From a virus, in the IMG/VR virus record IMGVR_UViG_3300045988_132745, positions 42,131-106,130 of that record: 64,000 bases of DNA; one strand, written 5' to 3'. Under the pieces are notes generated by a model. That model was not told the DNA's origin and ran no database searches. It worked only from the letters and a program-made list of their open reading frames with translations. Both the position numbers and the translations under genes were made by a program. Of this stretch, positions 5,229 through 50,511 are shown piece after piece. The number at the start of each line of letters is the position of its first letter. Within the stretch, counting starts at the first letter, position 1.

Positions 5229-6155
5229 ATGGAATTAAGACATTTACGCTCCTTTGTTTATGTCGCCGAAACAAAGTCGTTTAGTACGGCTGCCACACGT
5301 TGTTGTGTCACACAGTCGGCGGTAAGCCAGCACATTCGTGCCCTGGAGGATGAGTTGGGCTGCAAACTGCTTATCCGCACATCACACGGTATTATGCTCA
5401 CCGAAAGTGGCGAAGCCCTGTTGCCTCGTGCAAAAGAAATACTGAAACAGACCGAGGACTGCAAAGAGCAAATCAACGCCCTCAACAACTGCATGACGGG
5501 TGAACTGCGTATAGGCGTAGGTTCGTTTATTGCTCCATACGTCCGCATGGCTGCATTGTTTTTTATGGAGAGATACCCTAACGTGCGTATCAATGCCGAC
5601 TTTACTAAAGCCTACATCCTCAACCAATCGCTAAGGGCGCACATGTTAGACCTTGCTTTCACAATGAATATGGCATACCGCCACGAAGGAATAGAGTCGC
5701 GACCCTGCATACCTTTTAATGTGTATGCTATTATGCGCGACACCCATCCGCTTGCCTCGCTCTCAAAGGTGTCGTATGAGGACATTCTGAAGCACCCAAT
5801 CATCATGCCCGACATAGGCGAACGTGCCATTGAGACTTTTCAGCAATACATACAGCGCGACCTATATAAGCTCAATATCAAGTGCATCATCAGCGACCCT
5901 GACGAAGCTCTTGCTTCCGTGGAAGAAACCAAGTACGTCACCTTTATGCCTAAGCTCTACCTGCGCAACCACCCTACCCTTGTGGCACGTCCAATCGTAG
6001 GAATCGAACAGCAGTTGATGAGCAACGCCCACTGTATGCAGGACGTACCAAAGAAGCGAGCCGCACAACTCTTCCTCGACATCATCCGCGACGAAGTAGT
6101 GCCATATATTTCCGTAGCCGAAGAGGCGCAAGGGAAGTTCACACCGCCACCTTGA
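5229..6155 (+). CDS. LysR-family transcriptional regulator
   Basis: N-terminal HTH MELRHLRSFVYVAETKSFSTAATRCCVTQSAVSQHIRALEDELG plus roughly 200-aa substrate-binding-type C-terminus; classic LTTR layout. Confidence 0.9.
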   Translation: MELRHLRSFVYVAETKSFSTAATRCCVTQSAVSQHIRALEDELGCKLLIRTSHGIMLTESGEALLPRAKEILKQTEDCKEQINALNNCMTGELRIGVGSFIAPYVRMAALFFMERYPNVRINADFTKAYILNQSLRAHMLDLAFTMNMAYRHEGIESRPCIPFNVYAIMRDTHPLASLSKVSYEDILKHPIIMPDIGERAIETFQQYIQRDLYKLNIKCIISDPDEALASVEETKYVTFMPKLYLRNHPTLVARPIVGIEQQLMSNAHCMQDVPKKRAAQLFLDIIRDEVVPYISVAEEAQGKFTPPP

Positions 6156-6184
6156 TAGTCATTAGATTTTCTTATACCGAACCG

Positions 6185-6216
6185 AGTCTCACGTTAGCAG
6201 CGTGAGGCTTTTTTAT
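6185..6216 (+). terminator. intrinsic terminator after the LysR gene
   Basis: agtctcacg / cgtgaggct stem, loop ttagcag, T6 run. Confidence 0.75.
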
Positions 6217-6297
6217 TTAAGTATTAGTCGAAATTATACGTTATATCACCTCAAGAACACTTAATAAGAAACACTTCGCTTCCACCACTTTCTCCCA

Positions 6298-6305
6298 TAC
6301 CTTTG
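6298..6305 (+). promoter_or_regulatory. Bacteroidota -7 promoter box (TAccTTTG)
   Basis: TAnnTTTG 41 nt upstream of ATG 6346. Confidence 0.5.
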
Positions 6306-6345
6306 CAATAAGTTCAATAATGAACGAAACCAAACACAAACAACT

Positions 6346-6861
6346 ATGCAGATTAAAACTAACGACGGCAACTATGATGTTGCCAGCAAGGGACTCGGCA
6401 ACACAGCCCTGGGTCTCGGCATCGCAGGCTTGGCAACGAGCCTATTGGGAGGCAGCGCCTCGCTCCTGGGCATCGGAAGAAACAACGGCATGACAGCCAA
6501 TCCTACCGACCCTGATGCGCGTTTCGTAACTAAGAGTGAGACTAACCTCATTCAGGAGAACAGCACTCTGAAGACTGAACTTGCCATTCAGAAGAGCGAG
6601 AACTACACCGACAAGAAGCTCGTGGAAGTGACACAGTATCTCGACACGAAGTTGCGCCGTGTAGAAGACAAGGTAGACGCAAACAAGGATGCGCAGCAAG
6701 CCGTCAACGCACAGCAGATGGCTTACAATGCGGCTGCTAACGCCAGCATCGACGTGCTCAAGTCGCAGGTGGCATCGTTGTCGAGCGTAACCAAGTTGTT
6801 CATCCCTTCAACCAACGTATGCCAGACAGGTTGTGGTTGCGGTTGCGGATGCAATCAGTAG
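6346..6861 (+). CDS. hypothetical protein: Gly-rich hydrophobic N-terminus, coiled coil, C-terminal CGCGCGC tail
   Basis: 171-aa ORF; GLGIAGLATSLLGG segment; ends ...CQTGCGCGCGCNQ. Confidence 0.6.
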   Translation: MQIKTNDGNYDVASKGLGNTALGLGIAGLATSLLGGSASLLGIGRNNGMTANPTDPDARFVTKSETNLIQENSTLKTELAIQKSENYTDKKLVEVTQYLDTKLRRVEDKVDANKDAQQAVNAQQMAYNAAANASIDVLKSQVASLSSVTKLFIPSTNVCQTGCGCGCGCNQ

Positions 6862-6887
6862 GAGAATGACGTAATCCAGTTATATAT

Positions 6888-7310
6888 ATGGAATACAAAA
6901 ACTCACAAATCTTGGCGGCAGTCGTGTCCGAATGGGCACGACCCGCCATTTCACAGATAGCCGCAGGCAACCTCATGCGCCTACCCATGCTTCAGTCTCT
7001 GCAAGCCACCATCAGCTCGTTAGGCATTGTTAGTGGCAACTATGCCCTACAGAAGGACATCGAGCCGCTTATCCAGCCAATCATCAACTCGCTCGTCGCA
7101 CCTATGCTTGCCCGATATTTCGGTCAGATACCCGAGGAGAGTATACCGCAGATGGCACACGACATAGTGGAGAAGATGCGTGGTAACGGACCGCTGTCGG
7201 TGCTCGAAGGTATGGTGACGTTTGAAGAAGAAGACCTCAACGAGCTTGCCGATCTTCTTGACAAGAACCTTCCCGTAGCGCAGACGCAAGGCTATCAGGT
7301 AAAACATTAA
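6888..7310 (+). CDS. hypothetical protein
   Basis: 140-aa ORF packed in the + strand operon. Confidence 0.55.
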   Translation: MEYKNSQILAAVVSEWARPAISQIAAGNLMRLPMLQSLQATISSLGIVSGNYALQKDIEPLIQPIINSLVAPMLARYFGQIPEESIPQMAHDIVEKMRGNGPLSVLEGMVTFEEEDLNELADLLDKNLPVAQTQGYQVKH

Positions 7311-11386: not shown

Positions 11387-12565
11387 ATGAAGAACGTAAA
11401 GATTTTCGCAAAGACCATTGAGCAGGAGGCCAAGGAACAGATTGAGAGGATGGCAGCGAGCGAGGCTTATCGCGATTGTCAGATACGCATTATGCCCGAC
11501 TGTCATGCGGGCAAGGGATGCACGATTGGTACGGTAATTCAGACTGCCGGTAAGGTGGTGCCCAATACCGTAGGCGTGGATATAGGCTGTGGTATGTTGG
11601 TATTCAAGTTCGCTGAGAAGGATATAAACCTTTCGCTTCTCGACCGAATCATCAATGAGTCGGTGCCGAGCGGATTTGACGTTCACGAAAAGTCCAAGCT
11701 AAAAGATATAAGTCCGCTTACGTCACATATTTTGCTCGAATTACACGAAAGGACACAAGGCTGCTTCGACCCCGACTATATCGGACGCTCGCTTGGCACC
11801 CTCGGTGGCGGCAATCACTTCATCGAGTTGGACGAGGACGAGCAGGGTTATAAGTATCTTGTGATACATTCGGGCAGTCGCAATCTCGGAGTTAAGGTGT
11901 GCAACTTTTTCCAACACTTAGCCAAGAAGAATGTGAATCGAAACGAGGAGCGCAAGCGCATCATCGAAGACTTAAAGAAGTACGGCTTAGAGAAGGAGAT
12001 TAACAATACGTTGCGTCGTTTGGGCACCGTGCCTCCCGATCTCGCCTATCTTGAGGGAGAAGACCTCGATGCCTATATTTTCGCAGCGAACGTCTGTCGG
12101 TGTTTTGCAGACGACAACAGATGGAATATAGCAATGACTATCATCCATGGGCTTCATTTACCGTTCGTGGATTTCTTTACCACCAGGCATAACTATTTCG
12201 ACATACACTCAGGCATCATCCGAAAAGGAGCCGTGCGAGCTGCAAAGGACGAACAGCTCATCATTCCGCTCAATATGCGCGACGGTTCGCTTCTGTGTAT
12301 AGGCAAGGGCAACGACGACTGGCTTCAGTCGGCTCCGCACGGAGCTGGCAGACTAATGTCGCGCTCGGCGGCCAAGAAGCAGCTCAGCATGGAGGAATAC
12401 CGACAGCAGATGCACGACATTTACTCCACATCGGTATGCGAGTCAACAATCGACGAGTCACCAATGGCGTACAAGCCAGCCGAAGAGATAGAATCGCTTA
12501 TAGCCGACACTGTGGAAATTAAAAAGCGCATTAAACCTATATACAATTTCAAAGCGAAAGAGTAA
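11387..12565 (+). CDS. rtcB: RtcB-family 3'-phosphate/5'-hydroxyl RNA ligase
   Basis: Metal and GMP-site motifs IMPDCHAGKGCTIG, GGGNHFIEL, HSGSRNLG and PHGAGR, in the canonical order. Confidence 0.9.
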   Translation: MKNVKIFAKTIEQEAKEQIERMAASEAYRDCQIRIMPDCHAGKGCTIGTVIQTAGKVVPNTVGVDIGCGMLVFKFAEKDINLSLLDRIINESVPSGFDVHEKSKLKDISPLTSHILLELHERTQGCFDPDYIGRSLGTLGGGNHFIELDEDEQGYKYLVIHSGSRNLGVKVCNFFQHLAKKNVNRNEERKRIIEDLKKYGLEKEINNTLRRLGTVPPDLAYLEGEDLDAYIFAANVCRCFADDNRWNIAMTIIHGLHLPFVDFFTTRHNYFDIHSGIIRKGAVRAAKDEQLIIPLNMRDGSLLCIGKGNDDWLQSAPHGAGRLMSRSAAKKQLSMEEYRQQMHDIYSTSVCESTIDESPMAYKPAEEIESLIADTVEIKKRIKPIYNFKAKE

Positions 12566-38299: not shown

Positions 38300-40636
38300 A
38301 TGGCAGAAAAAACAGAGAAAAGGATTAAGGTGCTGCTTACACCGGGTGGCTCGGAATGGGTGGCGGATAAGGAGTACAAGAGACTTGACTACATCTCGGA
38401 CGGCAAGTCCGTGTGGGTGTGCGTCAAGGTGGATGCCGTGTCGGGTGTAAACGTGGGGCATCCGCTAACGGAGACGGCGTGGTGGAACAAGTGCATCGAC
38501 CTTAGCGAGGCGGAGAGCCTTGCTGGCGAGGCGACTGCTGCAGCTAACGCTGCCGCGACTACCGCCAACAATGCGGCTCAGGCGGCAGAGGATGCCAAGA
38601 CGGCGGCGGAGGCGGCTGTCTCCGAGGCAAACAAGGCTACGGAAGCTGCCAATACCGCGACATCGGCGGCACAGGCTGCCACTGCTGGGGCTAACGACGC
38701 TACTGCTGCCGCCGAGAAGGTGAACGCTGTGCTTGGCGATGACAACGTGCTGAAGGTGACGGACAGAAATGGAGTCGAGAAATCTTTGGAGCTGGTGTCG
38801 CAGGCTGCAGCAACAGAGATAGCGAAGCAGGTGGAGCAGAACACGGCGGACATATCGGGCGTGCAAAAACGTCTCGATATGTTCGGTGATGCTTTTGTAG
38901 GCTTTGCCCGTGTGTCGGGCGATGCCGACCCGAAACCTTCGCAGACCTACATCTACGGCACACGCCAGCTGGTGCGCGAGATTGGCAAGCACATGAAGAT
39001 AGGCACCGTGAAGCGTGTGGGCAACGAAGCTGTGTTGCAGCATGAGGGTGCGCCTGGACGCATAACCAAGGCAAGCAACGGCGAGGCAATGGCTGTGGAT
39101 GGCTCGGAGGGTGACTTGTTGGTATATACCGACATTCCTCTGCATCTTATCAAGGCTAACGAGACTGTCGAAGGACAGGAAATGAGCTGTATGGGCATAG
39201 GTGTAGTGCCTTGCTACTGGATGGGCCATGCAGCCAAGCGACTGGAGCCTTTCGCCTTTGCTCCATTCTATACTGTCAACGCAAAGATATTCGACGATGA
39301 GCGTTCGTGCGCACATTGTATCATCTCTGATGCAGTGGCTGGTACGTCTTTTACGCTTAACGGATTCGTACAAGAGACGTTCCGCCCAAATGCAAATGGT
39401 TATTACAATGTAGGTGTCTCGTCATTGGGATCGATACATAATGCACAGGCTAAGAACGCCGACTCTAACACCAACCGTCCGTACATGGGAGGCTACTATG
39501 AGTTCTACGAGCTGTGGATGACGATGATGTACATTGAGTGCGGCACGCTCAACACTACCGACCTCTACAGCATGGGTGTAGGTCTGACTACAGCCCACTC
39601 GGCAACAGCCGACACTTGGAACAACGAGCGCATTGCTGCAAACTCGGGCATAAAGATGATAGCGGCAGACGGCACGGTGGCAGGTTATGGTGCACTGATG
39701 TCGAAGAGCATGCGCAAGGGTGCAGACGGTAAGGTGGACTATAACCTCTCGGCAGTAGTGGGTAACGGATATTACAGCGCGACTAAGTGCGGAGAGGCAT
39801 TGATGGTGCTCGACGGCATAACTAAGGCAGGATTGCAGAGTAAGGTAGGCTTGTCTACTAATGTGTTCTATTTTGACGAGACGAACAATCTGGTATGCTC
39901 TACATCTATCAATCTTGACACAGGCGAGGGCATGACCCCCAACAAGCGATACTTCGTTGTGCGCGACGTGCCTAACTGTCAGGGTATCGGCGAGGGAGTG
40001 CTCACGGCTGTAATAAATACTTATGTCAAGTTCTCGGTAGCCGACGGTATATATACAGACAGTACCGACCTTACGGGAGGCACGGTAATATACAAGTTCT
40101 CGCATTCGGTGTACCGTGGCATGAGTATTCCTATGGACGGTGCATTCATGCAGCTATGTGGCGCACATTATATGTCTGGACGTACAGCTGAAGATACTGT
40201 CTACGGCAAGTTCTGTTGTGCCGAGAAATGGCAGGACATGGCACCGTTGACAAACGACACTGCCTATGGCGATATTGGCACTGAGTTCAACATTCTAAAG
40301 GGATTGAACAACGTAAAAAGCGTAAGTGGTAACGCAGGATGGGTAAGCAAGGCCGACTATTCTCTGTCGCTGTTCTGCTTTACCGAGCACAGCGGCGGTA
40401 TGCACACTAAGGAGTGCCGCTTTACTTGGAACGGTAATACACTATGGGGCTATGGTGATAGCAATACAGGTTTGCCCGCTACAGGTAAGGAAGGCGTAAA
40501 GGCTCTGGTTGTCGGGTGCAATGCGAACTGTGGCACTGCGTCGGCTTGTACCGCTATTTGCTACTCTGGCGTTAGCAATGGCGATTGGTATTACGCTGGG
40601 GCTTTGGCTGTCCCTCAGCTTAAATTCAAGCAATAA
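38300..40636 (+). CDS. DGR target protein: fibre-like receptor-binding protein with C-terminal variable region
   Basis: Ala-rich coiled-coil N-terminus like neighbouring fibre genes; the last ~40 aa are the VR copy of the downstream TR. Confidence 0.85.
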   Translation: MAEKTEKRIKVLLTPGGSEWVADKEYKRLDYISDGKSVWVCVKVDAVSGVNVGHPLTETAWWNKCIDLSEAESLAGEATAAANAAATTANNAAQAAEDAKTAAEAAVSEANKATEAANTATSAAQAATAGANDATAAAEKVNAVLGDDNVLKVTDRNGVEKSLELVSQAAATEIAKQVEQNTADISGVQKRLDMFGDAFVGFARVSGDADPKPSQTYIYGTRQLVREIGKHMKIGTVKRVGNEAVLQHEGAPGRITKASNGEAMAVDGSEGDLLVYTDIPLHLIKANETVEGQEMSCMGIGVVPCYWMGHAAKRLEPFAFAPFYTVNAKIFDDERSCAHCIISDAVAGTSFTLNGFVQETFRPNANGYYNVGVSSLGSIHNAQAKNADSNTNRPYMGGYYEFYELWMTMMYIECGTLNTTDLYSMGVGLTTAHSATADTWNNERIAANSGIKMIAADGTVAGYGALMSKSMRKGADGKVDYNLSAVVGNGYYSATKCGEALMVLDGITKAGLQSKVGLSTNVFYFDETNNLVCSTSINLDTGEGMTPNKRYFVVRDVPNCQGIGEGVLTAVINTYVKFSVADGIYTDSTDLTGGTVIYKFSHSVYRGMSIPMDGAFMQLCGAHYMSGRTAEDTVYGKFCCAEKWQDMAPLTNDTAYGDIGTEFNILKGLNNVKSVSGNAGWVSKADYSLSLFCFTEHSGGMHTKECRFTWNGNTLWGYGDSNTGLPATGKEGVKALVVGCNANCGTASACTAICYSGVSNGDWYYAGALAVPQLKFKQ
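40508..40618 (+). repeat. DGR variable region (VR)
   Basis: 111 nt aligning to 40994-41104 (offset 486) with 12 differences, all at TR adenines. Confidence 0.85.
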
Positions 40637-40795: not shown

Positions 40796-42664
40796 ATGAC
40801 TCTCATCGAACAGAAAAATATCGACACAACGAAGCAGCCATCATCGGAGAATGGGGTGATGTACGGCTGTCCGGTGGGTGCGTCTTGTCATGAAGCACAC
40901 GGTAAGCTCTCTCCTGCGGTGGACGGCAATGTGCCGACCGAGCCGTGTGTGACGGTTGACAAAGACAAAAGCGTGGGTAAGGAAAAGGCTCTCGTTGTCG
41001 GGTGCAATGCGAACAATGGCAATGCGTCGGCTTGTACCGCTAATTGCAACAATGGCGTTAGCAATGACAATTGGAATTACGCTGGGGCTTTGGCTGTCAA
41101 TCAGGTAGAAGATAGCAGGAAACACCTTACAACGCGACCAACAAGGTTAAACATAGCGAACACCCATACCGCCACTGGTGGGTATGGATTGGTAGACTGC
41201 CGCTCATTGCCGTTTTGGAGCGAGAGCACGGAGGCAGACGGCACTATCGGGAATGGTGCCAAACCGATGAAGGCTACCCATGAGGGAAATATCCTCGATG
41301 AATTGAAGACAGCGAATCATAAGAAGAAGCTGAGAAACTTGAAGAGATTTTTGACAGACCCTGTGATTGTGCGCATGGGTGTAGACAGATGTCTGGAGAG
41401 GGCAAGCGACTCGCCCGAAGTGCGCAATATTGAAAACAACAAGGAATACGTAATACAGCGCATAATACGTGAGCTGACCGACGAGACCTACAGATGTCAG
41501 CCTACCGTGCGTCGCATTATCGAGAAGAAAGGCAAGGGCGACAAGAATCGCAATGCCGACATATACACGGTGTATGACAGATGTGTGCAAAACGTGCTGC
41601 TGATAGTAATAAAGGAGAAGCTAACAAACATCATTTCGCCTTATTGCTATTCGGGCATTGAAGGCAGAAGCCTGTGGAGCAACGACAAGCGCGGGTGTAT
41701 GGTGAACCGAATACGTACATACGTAAAGAACCATCCCGATGCGAGCGCAGGATTGACGGACATACGTCATTTCTACGAGACGCTAAAATCGAAGGTGGTG
41801 CTTGGTGTGGTGTTCGAAACTATCACTTGCCCGTTTACACGCCGATTGCTGTGCGACATACTATTGCAGCACGACACGCTCGTTATTGGAGGTACGCTGT
41901 CGCAGATTCTCGCTATGCTTACGTTGACGGAGATGGATAACGAATTGACAAGACGCTTTAAACCGCAATTCTATGGTGGCTTTGGTGACAATCGTATCAT
42001 CATGGACGATGATAGAGAGAAGGTGTTGAAAGCCGTGCATTGGGAAAGGAGTTATCTTGAAGGTAGGTATGGCATGGAGATGAAGGGCGACTATCAGGTG
42101 GTGAGAGTGAAGAATGGCTTTATGTTTTGCAAACAGCACTTTAAAGGGTCGTTTGTGAACGTTAGGTCGGAGCTTAGGCGTAGGGCTATACGTGCAGCAG
42201 GCAGAGGCAGGCAGAACTATGCCGGCTATCACGGAATGTTGATGAAGACGGACAGCAGAAGACTGATACAACTTATAAGAAATGATATTAGACGATTAAA
42301 AAGAATGAAGAATCAAAAAGGAATGTCGGTACGCCCTATGGTTGGCGACAATATCAAACTGGATAAGGTAGAGGGTATGCAGATTGTCATTACAGACTAT
42401 TCGGTACGCCAGAACCATAAGGACAGCGAGTTCTTCGTTCGCTTTCAGTTTGTGGCAATAGGCGACGATGGTAGCAAGCATCTGTTTGTCACCAACAACG
42501 GCAGCTACGAGATAAAGGAGTTCTTCAAACTGGCTGAGGAAGGCAAAGTGAAAATTCCGTTGAAAACGAAGATATGCGCAGAGGGCAAGTCGTTTTACTT
42601 CGAGGGGTATCACACTACGAGTCAGGAGGCATGCGAACTGATATGCGCTAAGTTGGGAATATAG
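40796..42664 (+). CDS. DGR-type reverse transcriptase (maximal ORF; RT domain may start at in-frame ATG 41267)
   Basis: RT motifs KKGKGDKNRNADIYTVYDRCVQNVL, LTDIRHFYETL and DGR-typical VIGGTLSQ (41885-41905); motif C position reads FGDN (41981-41992). Confidence 0.85.
   Translation: MTLIEQKNIDTTKQPSSENGVMYGCPVGASCHEAHGKLSPAVDGNVPTEPCVTVDKDKSVGKEKALVVGCNANNGNASACTANCNNGVSNDNWNYAGALAVNQVEDSRKHLTTRPTRLNIANTHTATGGYGLVDCRSLPFWSESTEADGTIGNGAKPMKATHEGNILDELKTANHKKKLRNLKRFLTDPVIVRMGVDRCLERASDSPEVRNIENNKEYVIQRIIRELTDETYRCQPTVRRIIEKKGKGDKNRNADIYTVYDRCVQNVLLIVIKEKLTNIISPYCYSGIEGRSLWSNDKRGCMVNRIRTYVKNHPDASAGLTDIRHFYETLKSKVVLGVVFETITCPFTRRLLCDILLQHDTLVIGGTLSQILAMLTLTEMDNELTRRFKPQFYGGFGDNRIIMDDDREKVLKAVHWERSYLEGRYGMEMKGDYQVVRVKNGFMFCKQHFKGSFVNVRSELRRRAIRAAGRGRQNYAGYHGMLMKTDSRRLIQLIRNDIRRLKRMKNQKGMSVRPMVGDNIKLDKVEGMQIVITDYSVRQNHKDSEFFVRFQFVAIGDDGSKHLFVTNNGSYEIKEFFKLAEEGKVKIPLKTKICAEGKSFYFEGYHTTSQEACELICAKLGI
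40994..41104 (+). repeat. DGR template region (TR)
   Basis: Asn-codon-rich (AAY) copy of VR lying 5' of the RT domain. Confidence 0.85.
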
Positions 42665-44399: not shown

Positions 44400-45440
44400 A
44401 TGAAAAAGATAGTAAGAGGTAATGATTTTACATTGCGCATACCCGTGCGCAAGATTGTGGGGGGCGAGATGCAGAAGTTTCCATTGCCTGCATGCGAGGA
44501 GATTGAGGTGAACCTTGTAAACGCCTTTCGTCGCAGAAGAATGGCGCATACGATAGGTGTGGAGGACGACTCGCTGCTTGAGGTGAGGGTGCAAAGCTCG
44601 GAGATGGCTCTGGGTGCGTATGCCCTTGAGGTGAAGGGCAAGTTGTTTGGCTGTTCATGGCGAAGCAATGAGTATGAACAGATAATGCTTGTGGATAATA
44701 ATGCGTCGGGCGACACAGTGTTTGAGCCACATGAGGGTGAGGACTCGGTTGAGATGGACACGGCTGTTGTGGTGCTGCCTCCTACCGTGGAACTTGGCAA
44801 CCTGATAACGGGGGCAAACGAGGCTATCAAGAAGGCGAATGTGGCTACTGACAGAGCTAATGCTTCGGCAGACAAGGCTGACAAGGCTGCTGCGGACGCT
44901 AAGAGCACGGCTGATACTGCTGCTGCAGAAGCGAAGGCTACTGCGGACGCTGCTGCTGCCGAGGCGAAGAAAACGGCTAATGACGCTGCTGAACTGGCTA
45001 TTACAACTGCTAATGATGCCGCGACCGATGCAGAACAGAGAACGACCGCTGCTATTGCCGAAATGACTAAGCAGACGGACACTACGCTTGCTGCTGTTAC
45101 GCAACAGACAACGGACGCTATTGCTGATGTTAAGCAACAGACTACAGACGCTATTGCTGACGTTAAGCAACAGACAACGGACGCTATTGCTGATGTTAAG
45201 CAACAGACAGATACTGCTATTGCCGACGTGAAGCAACAGACTGCCGATGCTATTGCCAAGAACGACAAGGCTACGACCGATGCTGTGGCTAAGGCTGACA
45301 AGGCTACGGCTGACGCTGTGAAGGCTAAGACGGATGCGGACACGGCTGCGGACAGGGCTAATACGGCTGCAGAAAGATGCGAGAGCGTGAACGTAGATTT
45401 TGATGTGGAAAGAGGAGAATTGGTGATTGTAAGTGAATAG
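44400..45440 (+). CDS. fibre/baseplate protein with Ala-rich coiled coil and tandem 11-aa repeats
   Basis: N-terminal beta-rich domain, then ADKA/AEAK coil and QQTTDAIADVK repeated about 4.5 times. Confidence 0.65.
   Translation: MKKIVRGNDFTLRIPVRKIVGGEMQKFPLPACEEIEVNLVNAFRRRRMAHTIGVEDDSLLEVRVQSSEMALGAYALEVKGKLFGCSWRSNEYEQIMLVDNNASGDTVFEPHEGEDSVEMDTAVVVLPPTVELGNLITGANEAIKKANVATDRANASADKADKAAADAKSTADTAAAEAKATADAAAAEAKKTANDAAELAITTANDAATDAEQRTTAAIAEMTKQTDTTLAAVTQQTTDAIADVKQQTTDAIADVKQQTTDAIADVKQQTDTAIADVKQQTADAIAKNDKATTDAVAKADKATADAVKAKTDADTAADRANTAAERCESVNVDFDVERGELVIVSE
45102..45258 (+). repeat. 33-bp in-frame tandem repeat, about 4.5 copies
   Basis: caacagacaacggacgctattgctgatgttaag units. 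Confidence 0.8.
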
Positions 45441-49020: not shown

Positions 49021-50511
49021 ATGTTATGTAAAGATGATTTGGCGAAACCTAATAGGTGGAGCAATGTTAATCTGACGCAAGAACAATATATAGCCAAAGC
49101 AAGAGCCAAATGGGGCGATGCTTACGACTATTCGGAGAGCGTGTATCTTGCCGGACTGAAGCCTATCACTATTCGTTGTGTCAAGCACAATCGTTATTTT
49201 ACGGTACAGGCAGGAAATCATATTAGTTTGAGCCAAAGAGGTCTTTCCGGTGGTTGTCCGTTGTGTGCACAAGAACGTCTTGCTGAGTATAGAGAAAATA
49301 AACATAAGGAGACTTTGAGAAAAAACAAGCAGAAGAAAAAAGAAAGGCAAGAATCTCGCTTGTCTCCTCATGATGTTTTTCTCAAAAAAGCTAAGGCGAA
49401 ATATCCTCTCTATGACTTTTCGCTTGTGAAATATAAAGGTAGAGAAACTTATGTCACTATTATTTGTCCTGTTCATGGCGAGTTTAAGATTAAGCCTCGC
49501 ACACTTCTGAGAGGAGAAAAAGGCAAAAATCCGCATGGTTGTTGGAAGTGTAACGGGATGGTGCCACCCTATGAGCGAGAGAGCGGAATGGAATATTTTA
49601 AGCGTAAAATGTACGAGCTGTATGGCGATAAATACACCTTTATGTGGAGCGACTTCAAACATAAAAAGTCTCAAATCCGTTTCACTTGTAAACAGCATGG
49701 CGAACAGCACCGCAGCGCACAGGTGTTGTTGGAAGGAAAAGGCTGTGAGTATTGCAATGGCAAGCTTTGGCCTACTGATTGGATAAAAAACGCACGGGCT
49801 GTGCATGGAGATAAATACGAATACGACGAGAGCCGACCGCCAAGAATATTTACTGACCGTATTAGGTACAAATGTCCTGTGCATGGATGGCAGGAGACTC
49901 GTTATGATTGTCATGTACAGCAAGGCTGTGGCTGCGCATTGTGTGCAGGAGTTGTTAATAAGTTGTCTGCTGATGAACGAAAACAAATGTGGATAGAGAA
50001 ATGCAAAGCGCGATTTCCGGGCAAGTATTCGTATCGTGATGTGGTGTATGTCAACAATGATACGCCAGTGAAGATATATTGTAAGGAACATCATCTTACT
50101 TTTGAAACTACACCCGATACGCATCTGAGAGGAGCTGGAGGCTGTCCACTATGCACCAAGTCGGTGGGCGAAGTGCAAATATACAAATGGTTAAGCGAAC
50201 ACGATGTTCCCTTTGAAACTCAAAAAAAATTGCCCAACGAGAATATGTTTTGCAAACGTCAGTATCTCGTTGCCGACTTCTATCTGCCCGACCTTAATCT
50301 GATAATCGAAATGAATGGACTGCAACATTATCAGTATGTAGAGCATTTCAACACTAAGGATTGGACGTTTGAGGATCAGCAGATACGCGACGACACCTTG
50401 CGAGCATATTGCTGCGACCACGGTGTGAATCTGCTTGAAATAAAGTATAATGAGATTGGCCGAATACCTAAAATCCTTGCTAAGGCGATAAAGAAATACG
50501 GCAAGCGATAG
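49021..50511 (+). CDS. five-fold zinc-ribbon repeat protein with C-terminal Vsr/DUF559-like PD-(D/E)XK endonuclease domain
   Basis: Five repeats of the form G.KY.Y...........I...C..HG.F.....HL.G.GCP.C; C-terminus VADFYLPDLNLIIEMNGLQH matches the vDF...l.iE.dG.qH core. Confidence 0.65.
   Translation: MLCKDDLAKPNRWSNVNLTQEQYIAKARAKWGDAYDYSESVYLAGLKPITIRCVKHNRYFTVQAGNHISLSQRGLSGGCPLCAQERLAEYRENKHKETLRKNKQKKKERQESRLSPHDVFLKKAKAKYPLYDFSLVKYKGRETYVTIICPVHGEFKIKPRTLLRGEKGKNPHGCWKCNGMVPPYERESGMEYFKRKMYELYGDKYTFMWSDFKHKKSQIRFTCKQHGEQHRSAQVLLEGKGCEYCNGKLWPTDWIKNARAVHGDKYEYDESRPPRIFTDRIRYKCPVHGWQETRYDCHVQQGCGCALCAGVVNKLSADERKQMWIEKCKARFPGKYSYRDVVYVNNDTPVKIYCKEHHLTFETTPDTHLRGAGGCPLCTKSVGEVQIYKWLSEHDVPFETQKKLPNENMFCKRQYLVADFYLPDLNLIIEMNGLQHYQYVEHFNTKDWTFEDQQIRDDTLRAYCCDHGVNLLEIKYNEIGRIPKILAKAIKKYGKR

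Follow-up and report, generated by a model that had tools for sequence, protein, structure and literature searches.

Organization of the retroelement

The 64,000-nucleotide (nt) stretch of viral DNA analysed here (positions 42,131 to 106,130 of IMG/VR record IMGVR_UViG_3300045988_132745; hereafter the window) carries a diversity-generating retroelement (DGR) whose reverse transcriptase (RT) reads F-G-D-N-R where motif C would be expected to read Y-x-D-D followed by a hydrophobic residue. Both aspartates of the YxDD box are generally considered invariant among reverse transcriptases and indispensable to them. All features of the cassette lie on the plus strand. The target gene (38300–40636) encodes a 778-amino-acid (aa), tail-fibre-like protein, recognized from the list of open reading frames (ORFs) and from weak PHROG tail-fibre matches; the protein has no Pfam match. 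At its C-terminus lies a 121-nt variable repeat (VR; 40498–40618), a direct repeat that is 89% identical to a 121-nt template repeat (TR; 40984–41104), which a repeat search located within the long RT reading frame. The RT ORF spans 40796–42664 (622 aa as the longest ORF), and its conserved RT core starts near 41294; residue numbers below are those of a 456-aa RT query starting at 41294. Between target gene, TR and RT, the ORF list contains no ORF of a size suitable for Avd (no dedicated Avd profile search was run over all ORFs), and a 197-aa ORF downstream encodes a DUF4376 tail protein.

The RT ORF matches the reverse transcriptase family phrog_1423 (E = 1.7e-29) and TIGR04416 (E = 1.2e-12), as well as Pfam RVT_1 at E 4.4e-4 and 20.5 bits, which is under the gathering score of 29.6. 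Direct reading of the codons confirms the three motifs on which the original prediction was built, all of them in the frame of the ORF: ATT GGA GGT ACG CTG TCG CAG (41885–41905) encodes I-G-G-T-L-S-Q, the DGR-specific motif 4, also recognized from homologs; TTT GGT GAC AAT (41981–41992) encodes F-G-D-N, which together with the following arginine makes up motif C (F230-G231-D232-N233-R234; 41981–41995); and ATG GAC GAT GAT (42002–42013) encodes M-D-D-D. The motif 4 sequence conforms to the DGR RT hallmark of I, L or V followed by GxxxSQ, and the RT fold with its fingers and palm motifs is recovered by both profiles and Foldseek. A Y/F-x-D-D box with both aspartates is absent, the second position being held by Asn. 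Because every functional hallmark of a DGR RT is present, FGDN is treated here as a variant state within the DGR RT family and not as a ground for exclusion from it.

FGDN at the catalytic hairpin of the RT

FGDN had originally been assigned to the YxDD site by hand, from the distance between motif 4 and motif C in the Bordetella phage RT (bRT). That spacing is borne out by the alignments: IGGTLSQ and FGDN are as far apart as IGxxxSQ and YxDD are in bRT and canonical DGR RTs. In a phmmer search of all PDB sequences, the best match of the RT was bRT itself (8ub7_A, E 5.5e-6), with F230-G231-D232-N233 placed without gaps opposite bRT Y213-M214-D215-D216, and with D156 and D232 as the equivalents of bRT D138 and D215. 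In the alignments with group II intron RTs, YADD falls opposite the same residues F230–N233, and all four of the PDB alignments displayed set FGDN, not MDDD, against YMDD or YADD in a gapless manner.

A confident AlphaFold2 model (mean predicted local distance difference test score (pLDDT) 86.8), computed from an alignment of 16 clade sequences, agrees with this placement. Strands 226–230 and 233–238 form a hairpin with G231-D232 at its tip, and the catalytic Asp of motif A (D156; 41759–41761) terminates strand 151–157. The top PDB match of the model in Foldseek is the active-state bRT 8ub7_A, with a TM-score of 0.88 (normalised to bRT) and a root mean squared deviation of 2.4 Å over 331 columns. 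The phmmer search, the clade alignment, the predicted structure and its Foldseek match thus uphold the hand alignment, and together they indicate that FGDN occupies the YxDD position with the second Asp replaced by Asn. The converse arrangement, with MDDD in the catalytic hairpin, did not arise from the alignments, the model or its structural match.

Conservation and selection of the asparagine

Of the 120 best database homologs (71–98% identity), 119 have FGDN and one has VGDN, so the motif is not a sequencing accident. An exhaustive search over 1.84 billion cluster representatives recovered relatives down to 34% identity. Among 118 full-length matches that were aligned, a block of 15 sequences (the query, P0121–P0133 and P0136) invariably reads F-G-D-N-R; FGDN is shared by 15 of 16 clade representatives (34–73% identity), P0134 being the exception, and by all 23 clade loci found in IMG/VR (39–98% identity). 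In a rough neighbour-joining tree the FGDN RTs form one clade, within which the single Y-G-D-D-R member, P0134, is nested. The survey of homologous RTs that had been proposed returned a motif that is conserved almost throughout the clade.

Synonymous positions within the motif vary. In the 23 IMG/VR loci the Phe codon is TTT (16) or TTC (7), the Gly codon GGT (10), GGC (11) or GGA (2), and the Asp codon GAC (15) or GAT (8); the Asn codon, counted over these loci and the window, is AAC in 19 cases and AAT in five. Since Asn and Asp codons are one transition apart, yet Asn has been kept across saturated synonymous divergence, it is the Asn itself that is selected. The ratio of nonsynonymous to synonymous divergence (dN/dS) of the RT gene in close pairs is 0.06–0.13, and RT ORFs are intact in all loci. 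Beyond motif C, the residues D156, D232, K84 and R86 (fingertip) and K264 (motif D) are invariant within the FGDN clade, and the equivalents of D156 and D232 are invariant in all 118 aligned RTs, whether motif C carries DD or DN. On these comparisons, FGDN is not a product of decay, and its Asn is maintained by selection.

Adenine-specific diversification at FGDN loci

The original prediction counted 12 A-specific VR changes in the window, and this count is correct: TR and VR differ at 13 positions, 12 of which are TR adenines, in a TR with 30 A among 121 nt (binomial P 5.4e-7). All 23 FGDN clade loci have a TR immediately 5′ of the RT core together with its cognate VR, and pooled over these loci 306 of 321 TR/VR mismatches fall at TR adenines. 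In 16 canonical YxDD control loci, retrieved by the same search, the count is 208 of 227.

Comparison of close relatives adds a time scale. Their TRs are identical or one to two bases apart while their VRs differ, at TR-A positions; in the pair L001 and L013, for example, the TR is identical and the VRs differ at such positions. Most telling are L003 and L004, which, compared along ~7 kb of collinear sequence that takes in the complete RT, have one mismatch outside the VR and 14 differences within it, all at TR adenines. A further pair, L017 and L018, was left out of this comparison of near-identical genomes, an indel shifting the ungapped alignment. As L003 and L004 differ at 14 TR-A sites of the VR in an otherwise near-identical ~7 kb, mutagenic retrohoming has, at the population level and judged from these genome comparisons, operated very recently in genomes carrying an FGDN RT.

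The last two TR/VR differences of the window (AA at 41099–41100 against CC at 40613–40614, before TCAG) are common to six of seven close relatives compared; the remaining A-site changes vary among close relatives, and the VR of L004 has AA at the final pair. The AA/CC pair may be a fixed distinction between the initiation of mutagenic homing (IMH) sequence and IMH*, and not a product of mutagenesis. The VR peptide of the target protein is VVGCNANCGTASACTAICYSGVSNGDWYYAGALAV, which looks unlike the usual CLec VR consensus.

D-to-N changes in other DGR RTs

The exchange is not confined to the FGDN clade. In the rough tree, sequences reading FTDN, FADN, YADN, YMDN, YCDN and YNDN are scattered among canonical YxDD RTs; in this tree the second Asp of motif C has changed to Asn six times or more. 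Four of these RTs could be paired with a TR and VR: mismatches lie at A in 16 of 16 cases for P0160 (YADN), 24 of 25 for P0168 (YMDN), 24 of 24 for P0232 (YMDN) and 11 of 17 for P0228 (YMDN). The contigs L040 (P0134, YGDD), L042 (P0144, FTDN) and L044 (P0157, FADN) are too short to hold a VR and stand outside these counts. Since independent YADN and YMDN lineages have A-specific TR/VR pairs, the D-to-N change at this position is, on sequence evidence, a recurrent state compatible with DGR function. Some x-x-D-N singletons could be errors or dead copies, a problem of which the FGDN clade is free.

Proposed catalytic role and alternative explanations

Taken together, the comparative evidence makes it quite probable that F-G-D-N-R serves as the true motif C of a working DGR RT, in a monophyletic phage clade in which the Asn is selected, and that this RT still makes A-mutagenised cDNA. 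The possibility raised at the outset that the variant is active is strongly supported by the TR/VR pairs of all 23 loci, by L003 and L004, by the YADN and YMDN lineages, and by dN/dS; the FGDN RT evidently works and represents a motif C variant not described before among DGR RTs, with catalysis read from sequence comparison. In the mechanism that we propose, the FGDN RT would make adenine-mutagenised cDNA from the adjacent TR RNA. D156 of motif A and D232, the first Asp of motif C, would be the metal-binding carboxylates that carry the two-metal chemistry, and N233 would contribute an uncharged oxygen ligand or a hydrogen bond in place of the third carboxylate. Published work offers several points of contact with this scheme. 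In the accessible part of the report on active-state bRT, Mg2+ lies 2.2 Å from D138 and 2.3 Å from D215, and D216 is listed as catalytic with no Mg2+ distance stated there. A review of RNA-dependent polymerases assigns motif C metal binding to the N-terminal Asp, and the polymerases of non-segmented negative-strand RNA viruses work with GDN(Q) as their motif C.

Several observations weigh against an active FGDN RT. The substitution equivalent to N233 in HIV-1 RT, D186N, has been used as a mutant that disrupts metal binding at the polymerase site; the bRT authors count D216 among the catalytic aspartates; and in a survey of 155 DGRs both YxDD aspartates were 100% conserved (PMC3521204). Within the clade itself, P0134 reads YGDD, showing that this scaffold also accommodates the canonical state. 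The window represents 64 kb of a genome of possibly ~97 kb, leaving room for a further RT in the rest of the phage genome or in its host, and we infer catalysis by the FGDN protein from comparative genomics.

Among the other explanations, the one set out in the original prediction takes MDDD (42002–42013) as the true motif C, displaced by a six-residue insertion, with FGDN merely an upstream strand. Its adjacent Asp residues do lie close to the expected position. The tract M237-D238-D239-D240, however, aligns to L220-G-D-D223 of bRT in the same alignments that place FGDN opposite YMDD or YADD, so that by sequence bRT too has a similar acidic pair after its hairpin. In the AlphaFold2 model the tract sits off the hairpin tip, at the far end of the second strand, where it leads into helix 241–259. 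It also drifts among close homologs (MDDN, MDYD, MDED and MDND) and gives way in more distant clade members to FGGD, FIGD, IGGS, YVGR or GG-D, whereas GDN is invariant. The alignments, the model and the Foldseek match thus refute this explanation, to which we assign a very small probability, and MDDD is regarded as not catalytic. No more credible is a relic DGR, with A-specific TR/VR differences older than the D-to-N exchange and an RT that has begun to decay. A single TR/VR pair, such as that of the window, indeed cannot date mutagenesis. Against this, FGDN is common to lineages with saturated synonymous sites, so the D-to-N change is old, while the VR diversification seen between L003 and L004 is recent; the low dN/dS and the intact ORFs of all loci are equally at odds with decay.

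A more serious alternative, improbable in our judgement, is that the FGDN protein resembles an RT but is without catalytic activity, serving as a scaffold that might, for instance, bind RNA or direct targeting, and that the cDNA is supplied in trans by a canonical RT encoded elsewhere, in phage or host. The behaviour of D186N in HIV-1 RT and the restriction of the window to part of the phage genome both speak for it. A profile hidden Markov model built from 119 diverse RTs, on the other hand, found no second RT among the 410 stop-to-stop segments (≥60 aa) of the window, nor in 25 of the 26 related loci scanned, together 314 kb, so that recent A-specific VR diversification is seen where the FGDN RT is the sole detectable RT, and action of another RT in trans, also suggested originally, is not supported. 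The one exception, the 279-kb contig L020 (IMGVR_UViG_3300045988_162199), carries a second, canonical DGR RT (IGNLTSQ...YVDD) on the opposite strand; this finding counts towards the scaffold explanation, and is offset by the second RT having a different, CLec-type TR of its own and being split by a stop. In a dead protein, moreover, one would not expect D156, D232, K84/R86, K264 and the SQ motif to stay unchanged while overall identity falls to 34%. Lastly, independent xxDN lineages on unrelated contigs display the same A-specific TR/VR pattern beside their own RT. As a separate observation on L020, the TR of its FGDN RT matches two VRs, which belong to a 340-nt duplication of 99% identity; the positions of the two-DGR arrangement on this contig are 2630–2745, 5125–5240, 5639–5754 and 8682–10020.

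If the FGDN RT is active, some compensation for the lost Asp may be needed, given that D186N makes HIV-1 RT defective in metal binding. Clade-specific residues near the active site, namely G231, R234, T155 and D266, might provide it. D266 belongs to motif D (K264-G-D266; 42083–42091, with D266 at 42089–42091), in which K264 is also 100% conserved in the FGDN clade. Position 266 is Asp in 100% of the clade; among 91 YxDD relatives, 50 have Asn there and 7 have Asp. The FGDN clade thus combines Asn in motif C with Asp266 in motif D, and canonical relatives combine Asp in motif C with mostly Asn in motif D. This apparent D/N swap is a possible form of compensation, and is put forward tentatively because the other x-x-D-N lineages do not have D266 in common with the clade.

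A broader proposal is that DGR RTs can function on only two active-site carboxylates and that this state has evolved repeatedly, the Asn being adaptive and not a tolerated defect; it would then alter metal preference, rate or fidelity and so tune A-specific mutagenesis. We consider this speculative and rather less likely than not. Even the narrower reading, an active FGDN RT, has consequences. A large natural Asn clade with very recent activity indicates that the requirement for the second Asp is not absolute in the DGR RT family, and the clade offers a natural system for asking what the second Asp does and whether it affects metal choice or fidelity. Finders and annotators of RTs or DGRs that require YxDD, or that take its absence as inactivation, will miss or misjudge real elements.

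Extensions of the RT and other genes of the window

An extra C-terminal domain of ~112 aa (42326–42661) is fused to the RT in the AlphaFold2 model, set off by a low-confidence linker (residues 333–347); modelled alone, it reaches a pLDDT of 92. Neither this domain nor the N-terminal extension of the RT has a Pfam match, and Foldseek returned no significant PDB match for the domain, the weak top matches being OB-fold-like (Teb1, PrgE, PriB and POT1). The domain also exists on its own, in small proteins (P0137, P0140, P0149 and P0164). In this Avd-less DGR, the domain might stand in for Avd.

The TR of the FGDN elements lies inside the RT reading frame. In all 24 loci (39–98% RT identity) this frame is open from an ATG ~180–250 nt 5′ of the TR, through the TR and a ~190-nt spacer, into the RT; in the window it is open from the ATG at 40796, and the spacer occupies 41105–41293. 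The spacer has no stop in the RT frame in any of the 24 loci versus usually one to seven stops in each other frame. In five loci no in-frame ATG occurs after the TR and before the RT match begins; L021 has its earliest one 39 nt into the match. The N-terminal parts, comprising the TR region and the spacer, have an omega of ~0.3–1.5, estimated from few substitutions (~0.3–0.9 for the spacer in more divergent pairs). In divergent pairs, the synonymous divergence (dS) of these parts is far below that of the RT, which points to constraint on the N-terminal stretch at the nucleotide (RNA) level. By analogy with the Sp RNA of bRT, the spacer is probably the DGR RNA scaffold.

Elsewhere on the plus strand, the window encodes an RtcB-type tRNA-splicing ligase (11387–12565; phrog_1075, 1.9e-124) and a large HNH/homing-type endonuclease (49021–50511; phrog_559, 4e-80). 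A 346-aa ORF at 44400–45440 (plus strand) contains a run of near-perfect 11-residue repeats, QQTTDAIADVK, in four or five copies within an Ala/Thr/Asp-rich region; it has no PHROG match.

Comparison with known systems

The nearest annotated relatives of the window phage are distant Flavobacterium and Polaribacter phages, which have Bacteroidota hosts. Against the annotated phage collection, megablast of the cassette returned nothing, and tblastn of the RT returned only a distant Yersinia phage RT. In open-access text, a D-N variant of motif C is mentioned neither in the large DGR surveys nor in the papers on crAss-like DGRs that were consulted, and literature searches for FGDN, YMDN, YADN, YxDN and YVDN retrieved only unrelated uses of these strings.

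The closest structurally described relative is bRT of phage BPP-1 (PDB 8ub7 and related entries). The two RTs share their fold over the whole RT, the motif A Asp, IGxxxSQ and the hairpin geometry, and in both elements the TR adjoins the RT, the 3′ end of a receptor-binding-protein gene holds the VR, and mutagenesis is A-specific. They differ in sequence (18% identity), in motif C (F-G-D-N-R in the window, Y-M-D-D-I in bRT) and in architecture: the window cassette lacks avd, its RT has the extra ~112-aa C-terminal domain, and its TR lies inside the RT frame. Avd-less DGRs have been published, Avd (or HRDC) being common but not universal. Those of uncultivated phages, namely lineage 3 of Wu et al. 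and the crAssphage LMMB DGR (PMC7290462), resemble the window cassette in their order of target gene, VR, TR and RT and in the absence of avd; the published descriptions, in contrast, do not mention a non-canonical motif C.

The DGR RTs of epsilon crAss-like phages share with part of the FGDN clade a GxxxSP motif, which defeats detection by myDGR (PMC11054128). In the FGDN sub-clade this motif is found in P0123, P0129–P0133, P0136 and L023 (around 6001–6996), RTs in which motif 4 and motif C are both non-canonical. The epsilon crAss-like RT is, however, stated to have a catalytically active YxDD (PMC11054128), and the window RT keeps GxxxSQ.

Outside the RTs, the original prediction had likened FGDN to the GDN motifs of RNA polymerases. 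This comparison is sound as an analogy, the G-D-N(Q) of Mononegavirales L polymerases being functional at the equivalent position of the right-hand palm, and fails as homology: these are RNA-dependent RNA polymerases with no specific relationship to the window RT, and the resemblance is convergent. The D186N mutant of HIV-1 RT carries the same change as FGDN at the corresponding position, the last residue of its YMDD box. It differs in origin, in that D186N was engineered to disrupt metal binding, whereas FGDN is natural and, on the comparative evidence, selected within a recently active element.

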